Shown: positions 3,988 through 5,715 of the stretch, in pieces | Numbering within the stretch: the first letter of the stretch is position 1 | Layout: each line of letters starts with the position of its first letter | IMG/VR virus record: IMGVR_UViG_2698536672_000010 | Source of the DNA: a virus | Lineage: Duplodnaviria > Heunggongvirae > Uroviricota > Caudoviricetes | Direction: 5' to 3' (one strand) | Length of the DNA: 10,206 bases | Notes under the pieces: model-generated | Told to the model about the DNA's origin: nothing | Databases searched by the model: none | What the model saw: the letters and a program-made list of their open reading frames with translations, nothing else | Translations under genes and position numbers: made by a program

Positions 3988-4067
3988 GGTAAGCCCTGTT
4001 ATTAGTATTGGGATTACGGTCATTTTGTGCTGACACAAAAAAAAGATCAACCAGATTTGGTTATTTA

Positions 4068-4082
4068 TTACCTTTGAGGTAC
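4068..4082. promoter_or_regulatory. Operator-like palindrome C (TTACC-TTTGA-GGTAC), one mismatch
   Basis: Same family as A/B. Centre about 60 bp upstream of a candidate minus-strand promoter (TTGATC at plus 4045-4050, 17-nt spacer, CAAAAT at plus 4022-4027) that would drive the zinc-binding gene. Confidence 0.35.
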
Positions 4083-4090
4083 GAATAGAT

Positions 4091-4115
4091 ATGAAAAGAC
4101 CGCCGGGTGGCGGTC
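4091..4115 (-). terminator. Putative intrinsic terminator after the Cro-like gene
   Basis: Perfect hairpin GACCGCC-GGGT-GGCGGTC at 4098-4115. On the minus strand it is followed by TTTTCAT (plus-strand AAAA at 4094-4097). The T-run is short, so it may be a partial terminator or attenuator. Confidence 0.45.
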
Positions 4116-4137
4116 TACAGAGGGTTGTAGCTGGATA

Positions 4138-4368
4138 TCATGAGTAGAAGAAGTATGCCAGTTCTGCTTTTGAGCGCAGCCATTGTCTTGTTTTACAGGC
4201 TTTAAAAAGCCCATTCATCAATACTTTACCTGGCATTTTGCGCTTACCTGTTAAGTGAGTCTGGATATAGTGACTCGTCGTTCCGGCTTCCTGTGCGAAG
4301 GCTTCACGCTCATCCGGAGTAAGTGCAAGCCAGTGCTTTTTGAAATCGAAATGTCCGTTATCGCTCAT
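4138..4368 (-). CDS. Cro-like small HTH DNA-binding protein
   Basis: 76-aa ORF transcribed divergently from the CI-like repressor. Segment TPDEREAFAQEAGTTSHYIQTHLTGKRK has the pattern of a Cro/YdaS-type helix-turn-helix. First gene of the leftward replication operon. Confidence 0.6.
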   Translation of the reverse strand: MSDNGHFDFKKHWLALTPDEREAFAQEAGTTSHYIQTHLTGKRKMPGKVLMNGLFKACKTRQWLRSKAELAYFFYS

Positions 4369-4404
4369 AGCTATTGCCTGATATTTATTTCAGATAATAA
4401 ATAT

Positions 4405-4467
4405 TCACCCATAAGGTAACAAAAATCAAGGATAGTTACCTATGAGGTGCATTTACCTGTTGGGTAA
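4405..4467. promoter_or_regulatory. Tripartite operator region between the Cro-like and CI-like genes (palindromes D, E, F) with divergent promoters
   Basis: D 4405-4419 TCACC-CATAA-GGTAA (1 mismatch). E 4436-4450 TTACC-TATGA-GGTGC (2 mismatches). F 4453-4467 TTACC-TGTTG-GGTAA (perfect). Candidate minus-strand -35 TTGATT at plus 4424-4429, with D in its spacer/-10 region. Candidate plus-strand -35 elements TTGCTT (4470) and TTGAAT (4480) lie just right of F. Confidence 0.5.
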
Positions 4468-4522
4468 TATTGCTTTAAATTGAATCATCTACTGATTCAT
4501 ATATGAGGCGATTTTCCAGAAA

Positions 4523-5107
4523 ATGAAAAGTATCCAGGACGTCCGCAGGCAAAATCTCAACGACTTGATCGACCGTGAATTCAATGGTGTTCAGACGCGG
4601 ATGGCAGAAAAACTTGGAACTCAGGCAAATCTGGTAAACCGCTGGGCTCTTGGCAAGAAGGTTATCGGCGACCAGGTTGCGCGAAAAATTGAAGCTGCCG
4701 CCAATAAACCCCGTAACTGGCTTGATATCGATCGCTCGCTTTCTCAGGAAGGTTTTCAGCCTGTCGGCCCAAGCGACATTGGTCAGCTGGCGGCTCACAA
4801 CCTGGAACGCTGGATGAGCGAAAGCCGCGACCTTTCAACACAGGGAAAACTTCACCGCGCATCCGGCGTCGCCCAGGTGACAATCAGCCGCCTGTTAAAC
4901 AATGAGGTCAGCGTTTCCATTTCCACCCTGGAGAATGTTGCATCCGCATTCGGGCGTCACGGCTATGAATTACTGATTCACCCGCACGACCCTGCGACTA
5001 TCAACTATGACCGCTCGCGCTACGCATTGTTACCCGAAACAGAGAAGGCAAAGATCGAAAGTTACATTGAATTTGTCATCAGCCAGAACGAAAAAAACAA
5101 ACAATAA
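4523..5107 (+). CDS. CI-like prophage repressor with two XRE-type HTH domains and no LexA-like peptidase domain
   Basis: 194-aa ORF. First HTH around GVQTRMAEKLGTQANLVNRWALGKK, second around GKLHRASGVAQVTISRLLNNEVSVSISTLENVASAFG. No S24 Ser/Lys dyad motif seen. Divergent from the Cro-like gene and followed by a strong terminator. Confidence 0.7.
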   Translation: MKSIQDVRRQNLNDLIDREFNGVQTRMAEKLGTQANLVNRWALGKKVIGDQVARKIEAAANKPRNWLDIDRSLSQEGFQPVGPSDIGQLAAHNLERWMSESRDLSTQGKLHRASGVAQVTISRLLNNEVSVSISTLENVASAFGRHGYELLIHPHDPATINYDRSRYALLPETEKAKIESYIEFVISQNEKNKQ

Positions 5108-5127
5108 AATCATATTTTTCAGTAAGT

Positions 5128-5153
5128 AAGCCGCCTCATGGCGGCTTTTTTAT
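5128..5153 (+). terminator. Rho-independent terminator after the repressor gene
   Basis: Hairpin AAGCCGCC-TCAT-GGCGGCTT at 5128-5147 followed by TTTTTTATT, located 21 nt after the repressor stop. Confidence 0.7.
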
Positions 5154-5164
5154 TGCCAGCAAGA

Positions 5165-5241
5165 TTACCTTATGGGTGATTTTTTTAACTCATATCTATT
5201 GACATCAAACCAGATACGCATAATCATTACCTCAACGGTAA
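5165..5241 (+). promoter_or_regulatory. Early-left (PL-like) promoter of the recombination operon, flanked by palindromes G and H
   Basis: G 5165-5179 TTACC-TTATG-GGTGA (1 mismatch). -35 TTGACA at 5199-5204. -10 is ambiguous: CATAAT at 5219-5224 (14-nt spacer) or AATCAT at 5222-5227 (17-nt spacer). H 5227-5241 TTACC-TCAAC-GGTAA (perfect) lies at the predicted +1. Confidence 0.45.
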
Positions 5242-5260
5242 CAGACCGAGGTAACAAATT

Positions 5261-5413
5261 ATGCAGTGGAAAATCATCAACGGTTGGTACTGCGTTACTG
5301 CATGCGGATTCATGAGCTGGAAGTTCCGCACCTTACAGGAAGGCATTAAGTGGGCTTTCGTCAGCAAAGAAGCTCGCGATGTGGCCAACGATAACGAGAT
5401 ATGGGAGGGCTGA
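5261..5413 (+). CDS. Small hypothetical protein (50 aa), first gene of the recombination operon; below the track length cutoff
   Basis: ATG at 5261 with GAGGT 9 nt upstream. Translation MQWKIINGWYCVTACGFMSWKFRTLQEGIKWAFVSKEARDVANDNEIWEG, stop TGA at 5411-5413, 2 nt before the next start. No family recognised. Confidence 0.35.
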   Translation: MQWKIINGWYCVTACGFMSWKFRTLQEGIKWAFVSKEARDVANDNEIWEG

Positions 5414-5415
5414 TA

Positions 5416-5715
5416 ATGAACGTTAATCAGCAGAAAAATCTTCAAAAAATCATGCAGGCATTTGACAAGGACTACCACCTGTCAGAACAGCTATATGACC
5501 GACAAGTTGAACTGATTGAGAGCATCCGACTTCATCAACTGTCATCAACTTTCGACGTTGTAACAGGCAAAGGCGTTCGTCAGGAAGTACTGGAGGCTGC
5601 TAAAGACAGCCCTGAGTTCGAAGAACTGATGGATGCCTATCGGCGAGAGGCAATGGCAATTATCGCCCGCTGGGATCTGGCGGATCAGCTTGATGGACAG
5701 AAGGACGCGGCATGA
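5416..5715 (+). CDS. Hypothetical protein (99 aa), coupled upstream of the exonuclease
   Basis: ATG at 5416 with GGGAGGG Shine-Dalgarno 6 nt upstream; the track's 5401 start lies inside that Shine-Dalgarno. Stop overlaps the exonuclease start as ATGA. Acidic C-terminus; no domain recognised. Confidence 0.55.
   Translation: MNVNQQKNLQKIMQAFDKDYHLSEQLYDRQVELIESIRLHQLSSTFDVVTGKGVRQEVLEAAKDSPEFEELMDAYRREAMAIIARWDLADQLDGQKDAA

Follow-up and report, generated by a model that had tools for sequence, protein, structure and literature searches.

The stretch of DNA considered here (the window, 10,206 nucleotides; IMG/VR virus record IMGVR_UViG_2698536672_000010) is the immunity and early-left region of an epsilon15/phiV10-type (Uetakevirus) Escherichia coli prophage integrated beside guaA. 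Its early-left operon opens with two small open reading frames (ORFs) on the + strand, a leader gene of 50 amino acids (aa), ORF-A (5261..5413), and a gene of 99 aa, ORF-B (5416..5715), which precede the genes of a phage exonuclease and a phage annealase. Both genes are real. Profile comparisons make it likely that ORF-B is homologous to lambda Gam, and the chance is somewhat better than even that it encodes a diverged Gam-like inhibitor that blocks RecBCD. The two genes are not a unit: ORF-A goes with the immunity region and ORF-B with recombinase modules. A 701-bp query around them returns 562 records, and 559 of 5,426 complete E. coli genomes, i.e., about one in ten, carry the locus; the closest E. 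coli prophage is 99.6% identical, and there the whole prophage runs from capsid genes to guaA. The RefSeq genomes and annotated phage records that were examined either call both genes hypothetical or do not annotate them.

Similarity of ORF-B to lambda Gam

When a profile built from 15 diverse members of the ORF-B family (A6) was compared with a panel of 30 early-left proteins of lambda, P22 and Rac (Gam, Kil, cIII, Ea10, Ral, N, Abc1, Abc2, Arf, RacC, YdaE/F/G, KilR and others), lambda Gam was the top match. The 98-aa Gam proteins of SEN34, POCJ13 and lambda (GamS) score 18.2, 14.4 and 13.2 bits, respectively, in colinear alignments that end at residues 87-88 of ORF-B and 90-91 of Gam, the longest of which (SEN34) pairs ORF-B residues 30-87 with Gam residues 32-90; none of 15,000 composition-matched shuffles of Gam reached the real scores, their maximum being 12.2 bits. 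Comparison of A6 with a three-Gam alignment by hhalign gives Prob 75%, P 2.5e-5 and a score of 31.8, a result that is positive but below proof of homology, and places ORF-B residues 31-87 (5506..5676, + strand) colinear with GamS residues 33-90. The reversed Gam alignment scores 14.1 in the same comparison and 200 column shuffles reach at most 21.3 (mean 11.1), while the C-terminal half of ORF-B taken alone yields Prob 72% and P 3.4e-5.

Curated models of Gam point the same way. For one homologue (P0185), encoded by a guaA-integrated element, Pfam Gam (PF06064) is at the top of 24,736 models with E 0.0042 and 17.7 bits, residues 31-94 aligning to positions 33-96 of the 98-position profile, and one ORF-B family member matches phrog_259, 'gam-like', with E 0.016. 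Reciprocity was tested on 1,788 ORFs taken from all six frames of 25 phage loci. Outside its own family, the ORF-B profile matched three Gam ORFs best (17.6, 14.4 and 12.3 bits), followed by a match at 7.9. The best non-Gam match of the three-sequence Gam profile was an ORF-B homologue, whose 19.8 bits exceed the 17.5 of the HK639 protein annotated 'gam-like'; other members of the ORF-B family fill the list, the ORF-B of the window scoring 11.7 bits. ORF-B is also close to GamS in length (99 vs 98 aa) and isoelectric point (pI, 4.70 vs 4.99), and its AF2 model, a monomer of modest to low confidence (pLDDT 66, pTM 0.46), consists of helices only. It has the size, charge and, as far as the low-confidence model tells, the all-helical make-up of PF06064 (~98 aa, acidic), and it lies directly before phage recombination genes in an early-left operon, as Gam genes do in lambda, SEN34, POCJ13 and HK639.

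Several observations weigh against this relationship, and taken together they could mean that the similarity is a chance likeness of short acidic helical proteins and that the function of ORF-B is unrelated. The homology signal is statistical, and all scores are under curated thresholds: the best Pfam score in the family, 17.7 bits, compares with a gathering score of 25, it was obtained for one of 15 members scanned (~0.06 after correction), and the ORF-B of the window has no Pfam match. In a search of 177,635 distinct PDB sequences with the ORF-B profile, Gam (5mbv_A) ranks second with E 0.31, which is not significant alone, and a Lon coiled-coil segment ranks above it. A less diverse ORF-B profile (A3) and a tblastn search of phiV10 with lambda Gam place the same Gam segment on ORF-B residues 10-43, an alternative register which indicates that helical pattern noise is present; ORF-B has no internal repeat that would explain it. 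Structure searches, including Foldseek, are silent, neither supporting nor contradicting the link to Gam, and are uninformative given the poor monomer model and the extended dimeric form of Gam. However, the shuffled, reversed and decoy controls all score well under the real comparisons, three independently built Gam models (Pfam, PHROG and our own) give one colinear register, and length, charge and genomic position match Gam too. A mere chance likeness is therefore improbable in our view.

The similarity to Gam is confined to the C-terminal half of ORF-B, which likewise speaks against a simple equivalence, the N-terminal half giving only a weak, off-register match. It is Gam's N-terminal helix that enters and plugs the RecB channel, and duplex DNA is mimicked by acidic side chains of the protein (PMC5218532); thus the portion of Gam that bears most directly on how it works is not recognisably conserved in ORF-B. 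One could accordingly imagine that ORF-B combines the C-terminal domain of Gam with a different N-terminal half aimed at another target, such as SbcCD or a defence system that senses DNA ends or DNA mimics. Gam itself reportedly interacts beyond RecBCD, e.g., with Kiwa. Sequence analysis does not separate RecBCD from SbcCD or defence targets, but the slot beside a recombinase is typical of RecBCD inhibitors and no other RecBCD inhibitor was found in phiV10, and we regard a different target as quite unlikely. The annotation of the complete phiV10 genome lists neither a Gam nor an Abc gene, and no canonical Gam ORF is present among the six-frame ORFs of any ORF-B locus.

Because the curated family threshold is missed, ORF-B was not filed as a member of the Gam family. 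It is probably a variant that resembles lambda Gam most and is unrecognised by the libraries searched, that is, a nuclease inhibitor of a known rather than an undescribed kind. A sequence-only reading of the window had stated that neither protein resembles Gam, Kil or Abc by eye and had put both forward as candidates for undescribed host-nuclease inhibition, to be checked by remote homology and structure searches. These searches leave the first statement standing for ORF-A, which gives no match, but not for ORF-B, whose C-terminal half profiles link to lambda Gam below threshold; as for the second, ORF-B is probably a diverged known inhibitor, and we find no support for a nuclease-inhibitor role of ORF-A.

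Two other proposed relatives of ORF-B were set aside. Its similarity to DUF1382/lambda orf63 is at noise level, and ORF-B is unrelated to RacC, whose gene lies upstream of recE in Rac.

The ORF-B family and its genomic neighbourhood

The ORF-B family comprises 290 clusters at 90% identity, and 34 representatives at 50% identity were found among 1.84 billion proteins. The named sources of both the ORF-A and the ORF-B families are nearly all Enterobacterales, the exception being one Pedobacter record, which may be contamination. Deep homologue searches with both ORFs returned narrow enterobacterial families only and no annotated relative: ORF-A (epsilon15 gp37, PhiV10p39) belongs to phrog_898 and ORF-B (epsilon15 gp36, PhiV10p38) to phrog_856, both families of unknown function, and scans of the two window proteins with Pfam, NCBIfam and PADLOC gave no match. 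When viral contigs were scanned with three distant ORF-B homologues, two loci of known type were the only additions, and no paper giving a function to ORF-A or ORF-B was found in the literature.

In the window, ORF-B is followed by the gene of a RecE-type PD-(D/E)XK exonuclease (DUF3799; 5712..6533, + strand; Pfam PF12684, E 1.1e-21), to which it is translationally coupled and whose C-terminal part matches the NCBIfam exodeoxyribonuclease VIII model under that model's cut-off, and then by the gene of a RecT-family annealase (6530..7411, + strand; Pfam PF03837, E 8e-32). Across the family, the gene found directly downstream of an ORF-B homologue is that of DUF3799 with RecT behind it, a YqaJ-type exonuclease accompanied by a different annealase (epsilon15), RecT itself, or an AAA_24 (Sak4-like) protein. 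The distant homologues sit as gam does, after kilR or a cIII-like gene and directly before the recombinase, which bears out the kil/gam-like slot that had been proposed from position in the window alone. A lambdoid contig (L009) that carries genes for an S24 repressor and O/P replication proteins has, in this order, a 126-aa gene, kilR, the ORF-B homologue, the DUF3799 exonuclease and RecT, and lacks ORF-A; on another contig (L007), a cIII-like gene is followed by the ORF-B homologue and then by the AAA_24 (Sak4-like) protein. On a further contig the homologue lies ahead of a YqaJ-type exonuclease, and on one it overlaps the start of RecT directly.

This association could also be explained if ORF-B were an accessory factor of the phage recombinase, comparable to P22 Arf or T4 UvsY, which would load or stimulate the annealase or the exonuclease and leave host nucleases untouched. 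ORF-B is always directly upstream of recombination genes and is often translationally coupled to them, P22 Arf fills the same slot, between kil and erf, and the top match of ORF-B in the PDB by Foldseek is UvsY, although this match is not significant (E 5.8, TM 0.36). On the other hand, ORF-B is found beside at least four recombinase arrangements of differing families (DUF3799 with RecT; a YqaJ-type exonuclease with a second annealase; RecT alone; AAA_24), which makes a specific partner protein unlikely, and it has no similarity to Arf, its sole sequence signal being Gam. The role of an accessory factor is thus hard to credit, and since ORF-B accompanies recombinase modules whatever their kind, a host target is favoured instead.

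Uetakevirus-type elements carry two alternative exonuclease/annealase cassettes behind ORF-A and ORF-B, with no BLAST-level similarity to each other. The first consists of DUF3799 and RecT (5712-7411 in the window) and the second, represented by gp35/gp34 of epsilon15, of the YqaJ-type gp35 and a 340-aa RecT-like protein; the loci compared with window positions 5712-7411 were L002 (5300-7231), L091, L094 and L010. The presence of two cassettes behind one gene pair is clear module swapping.

In several elements, ORF-A is separated from ORF-B, or ORF-B from the exonuclease, by a gene of ~330 aa (phrog_1376) or by smaller genes. The phrog_1376 gene, which has 320-350 aa and no Pfam match, is inserted between ORF-A and ORF-B in some relatives (L098 1603-2628, L099 4980-5993, L100 5034-5993, L101 264-1244, L110 5147-6139 and L113 3947-4993); since the slot accepts cargo, it is a possible anti-defence or moron gene. 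Extra small ORFs, for which no family assignment was obtained, are located between ORF-B and the exonuclease in phage Tyrion (45 aa; L004 5300-5437) and in L093 (96 aa; 5300-5590) and just upstream of ORF-B in L110 (57 aa; 6148-6321). An E. coli variant of 143 aa (P0025) has the first 82 residues of ORF-B fused to the C-terminal end of RecT and apparently arose when a decaying prophage lost the exonuclease and the greater part of RecT by deletion.

Expression of the early-left operon and proposed action of ORF-B

The assignment of both ORFs as genes, made earlier from the sequence of the window, agrees with RefSeq, which annotates them at matching coordinates in the 99.6% identical E. coli prophage. 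ORF-B was scanned as 5401..5715 from an upstream in-frame ATG; that codon is not conserved in relatives, whose conserved start corresponds to 5416, several of them using GTG there, and this start gives the 99-aa product. The ribosome-binding sites read from the sequence are GAGGT (5248-5252, 8 nt ahead of the ATG) for ORF-A and GGGAGGG (5403-5409) for ORF-B. Two nucleotides separate the stop of ORF-A from the start of ORF-B, and the stop of ORF-B overlaps the exonuclease ATG in the sequence ATGA (5712-5715), so the tight coupling of ORF-B to the exonuclease noted before is borne out. By tblastn, each ORF is present in 36 phage records with an identical organism breakdown, all of them epsilon15/phiV10-like phages of Escherichia, Salmonella, Klebsiella and Enterobacter.

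Upstream of the pair lies a two-HTH (helix-turn-helix) prophage repressor gene (4523..5107, + strand; Pfam HTH_3, E 1.2e-9, and weak YdaS) of the same type as epsilon15_p19. Its ZX5 homologue is annotated 'repressor', and the RefSeq note on the epsilon15 repressor cites the structure of the SPC32H repressor, 5D50. The repressor transcript ends at a terminator-like hairpin with a T-run (5128..5147, + strand; an 8-bp stem with six G-C pairs, then TTTTATTG), and just 3' of it lies a PL-like sigma-70 promoter, TTGACA-17-AATCAT (5199..5227, + strand), which with 10 of 12 matches is the top sigma-70 match in 4000-7800. This is the layout of lambda, in which the PRM-cI transcript and a terminator are followed by PL.

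The PL-like promoter is flanked on both sides by copies of the palindrome TTACC-N5-GGTAA, which we consider putative repressor operators: TTACCTTATGGGTGA (5165..5179) lies upstream of the -35 element and TTACCTCAACGGTAA (5227..5241) abuts the -10 element, with base 5227 in common. At no more than one mismatch, the palindrome occurs at eight sites in the window against 0.18 expected (149-163, 2060-2074, 2122-2136, 4068-4082, 4405-4419, 4453-4467, 5165-5179 and 5227-5241). Two further copies lie between the repressor gene and the Cro-like gene, in the PR/PRM-like region, and the remaining ones are near 2060-2136, upstream of a DUF1064 gene, at 4068 and at 149, which suggests that the repressor may control more than two promoters. 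The motif upstream of ORF-A is kept in 11 related loci, and in epsilon15 it lies inside a repressor-binding site annotated in RefSeq. It is therefore right to regard ORF-A and ORF-B as the first genes behind a PL-like promoter, and control of this promoter by the repressor is what its bracketing palindromes predict.

No terminator was found inside the early-left operon, and ORF-A, ORF-B, the exonuclease, RecT and the AlpA/Xis-like, PerC, methyltransferase and DUF1382 genes are for this reason presumably co-transcribed. The sequence-only reading had also reported that no N-like arginine-rich antiterminator is present. Indeed, none was seen among the window ORFs, and P22 gp24 and lambda N used as queries found nothing in phiV10.

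In a lysogen, the repressor bound to the two operators bracketing the PL-like promoter would keep the operon silent, and upon infection or induction it would leave the operators and the operon would be transcribed. In the related phages SPC32H and ZX5, release of the repressor involves an antirepressor (PMC9782041; RefSeq note of epsilon15). ORF-A would be translated first, with ORF-B, the exonuclease and RecT coupled through short gaps or overlapping stops and starts. The ORF-B product, small, acidic, all-helical and probably dimeric, would then occupy the DNA-end site of RecBCD and block the nuclease, so that injected and replicating linear phage DNA would be protected and its ends left to the phage exonuclease and annealase.

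ORF-A

The coding capacity of ORF-A was examined at 11 loci from several genera by comparing the proportions of nonsynonymous and synonymous differences (pN/pS) over the first 33 codons. In its own frame, pS is 0.64 and pN 0.14, a ratio of 0.21, while four of the five other frames give ratios of ~1.4-2 and the antisense frame that shares third positions gives 0.47; among the first 34 codons, variable positions number 27 at the third base versus 13 at the first and 14 at the second. ORF-A thus codes for protein and is under purifying selection. That its conservation stems from an RNA element or from an antisense gene was rejected since the substitutions track the ORF-A frame; an Rfam scan gave no match for an RNA element at ORF-A, and the folding of the 5' region is unremarkable (z -1.9). 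In phage Tyrion, a 70-aa gene, gp39 (L004 4751-4963, - strand), is annotated antisense to the place of ORF-A, and ORF-A is omitted. It is probably a mis-annotation, because cross-genus substitutions support the frame of ORF-A.

ORF-A is represented by only 44 clusters in 5.8 billion proteins. It is found only in elements with this Uetakevirus-type repressor and is the first gene after the repressor gene in every locus found for which that side was covered. Conservation across genera is stronger in its first 34 residues (MQWKIINGWYCVTACGLMSWKFRTLxEgIxWAF) than in the neighbouring repressor and ORF-B, and its last 15 residues are variable. In one variant of 59 aa (P0139), nine residues of the conserved core (WYCVTACGF) are duplicated in frame. 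By a hand calculation on the Kyte-Doolittle scale, ORF-A is too weakly hydrophobic to span a membrane. A zinc-binding, YdaE-like protein (PF24184) was considered and rejected: only two cysteines are present (C11 and C15), both are replaced in some homologues, and the matches to PF24184 are weak (five of 22 ORF-A members, best E 0.0011).

Placed before a Gam-like gene as kil and cIII are, and tightly conserved as a protein with a conserved host target might be, ORF-A may be guessed to act on such a target in the manner of Kil or cIII, i.e., as a cell-division inhibitor or a protease inhibitor. The gene order parallels kil-gam of lambda and HK639, as well as the kilR-ORF-B and cIII-like-ORF-B orders described above, the length of 50 aa is close to that of Kil (47 aa) and cIII (54 aa), and the 34 N-terminal residues are strongly conserved across genera. 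Against this stands the lack of detectable similarity. Pfam searches of 22 ORF-A members at E up to 10 returned no Kil, KilR (PF27398) or cIII (PF02061), hmmsearch and hhalign comparisons with Kil of lambda, P22 and HK75, KilR and cIII stayed at noise level, and the ORF-A profile matched none of the 30 early-left proteins of lambda, P22 and Rac. Moreover, it is the repressor gene, not ORF-B, that ORF-A stays with, other genes can sit between ORF-A and ORF-B, and its AF2 model is unusable (pLDDT 54). The guess is a doubtful one, and a regulatory role, suggested by the strict link to the repressor region, is equally open. Among individual early proteins, no relation of ORF-A to YdaF/DUF1391, YdaG, YdaE, Ral, Arf, Kil or cIII was detected.

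Taken jointly, the two genes could be read as a takeover pair outside current anti-defence catalogues, in which ORF-A would be a new small early protein tied to the Uetakevirus repressor region and acting on host division, proteolysis or transcription, and ORF-B would be Gam-derived, its unrelated N-terminal half providing a different block of RecBCD or a different target. We hold this combination to be rather unlikely.

Other genes of the window

Downstream of RecT, the + strand carries an AlpA-like (AlpA/Xis-like) gene (7461-7709), a PerC-like gene (7819-8118 as scanned; RefSeq start 7867), the gene of an MT-A70 methyltransferase (8099-8761 as scanned; RefSeq start 8111) and a DUF1382 gene (8758-8952), and the integrase gene (8956-10206) lies on the opposite (-) strand. 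The Cro-like gene (4138-4368) and the replication genes are oriented opposite to the early-left operon.

Between the AlpA-like and PerC-like genes, a 38-aa ORF (7706-7822) has a hydrophobic segment, WYLFLASVSAWLYLLALIF, and its counterparts in epsilon15 (gp32) and phiV10 (p35) carry a membrane-protein annotation. Two homologues of genes from the exo-xis region of lambda are found in these operons, orf63 (DUF1382; 8758-8952 in the window) and orf60a (DUF1317; in the relatives L003, 7689-7847, and L004, 7899-8078), and the early-left operon thus shares small modules with lambda beyond recombination. The exonuclease and RecT are two genes with overlapping stop and start in the window (5712-7411) and in most relatives, and RefSeq shows them as a single fused gene of 586 aa in phiV10 (p37; L109 29722-31482), which is either a real fusion or a sequencing frameshift.

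Comparison with known systems

If ORF-B is of the Gam type, it would explain how linear DNA is protected in epsilon15/phiV10-type phages, which have no recognised inhibitor, and these phages and prophages would be predicted to set off defences that monitor RecBCD, among them retron Ec48 and P2 OLD. It would also be a natural analogue of Gam that comes with its own RecE/RecT module and may serve recombineering, and the Gam family would reach well beyond lambda-like sequences, such an extension of a known family being the likeliest outcome.

The small accessory genes of P22, abc1, abc2 and arf, flank the annealase gene in an early-left operon as ORF-B does, and Abc2, with 97 aa, acts on RecBCD, which it reportedly modifies and does not block (PMC9836394). 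However, these proteins share no sequence similarity with ORF-B, and abc1 and abc2 are located downstream of erf while ORF-B is upstream of the recombinase. The ORF-B profile scores only 0.3-2.0 bits against Abc2 of P22 and HK75, which leaves ORF-B outside the Abc2 family.

Recombination loci have been described as a reservoir of RecBCD inhibitors, for which OLD toxicity is usable as an assay, and Gp33 of HK75/HK446, which triggers P2 OLD, was put forward as a new inhibitor of this nuclease (bioRxiv 10.64898/2026.07.10.737580). HK75 Gp33 is, like ORF-A and ORF-B, an uncharacterised small gene in a recombination locus, but it is unrelated to both. Gp33 (56 aa) is Arf-like by eye only, through a common SDEEFI motif.

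Lambda Kil, KilR of Rac and lambda cIII resemble ORF-A in being early-left proteins of 40-75 aa whose genes lie just before gam or the recombination genes. They differ in sequence, to which ORF-A shows no similarity, and ORF-A is first after the promoter and restricted to Uetakevirus-type immunity regions.

The closest parallel to ORF-B is lambda Gam (GamS, PF06064; structures 2UUZ/2UV1, and 5MBV with RecBCD). The N-terminal third of ORF-B is not recognisably related to that of Gam, which contains the helix inserted into RecB, ORF-B is mostly paired with RecE/RecT-type modules and not with lambda Exo/Bet, and it has no long isoform equivalent to GamL. Yet both proteins are acidic, predicted to be all-helical and ~98-99 aa long, their C-terminal ~57 residues are colinear (hhalign Prob 75%), and both are encoded immediately upstream of an exonuclease and an annealase in an early-left operon under the control, predicted in the case of ORF-B, of the prophage repressor.

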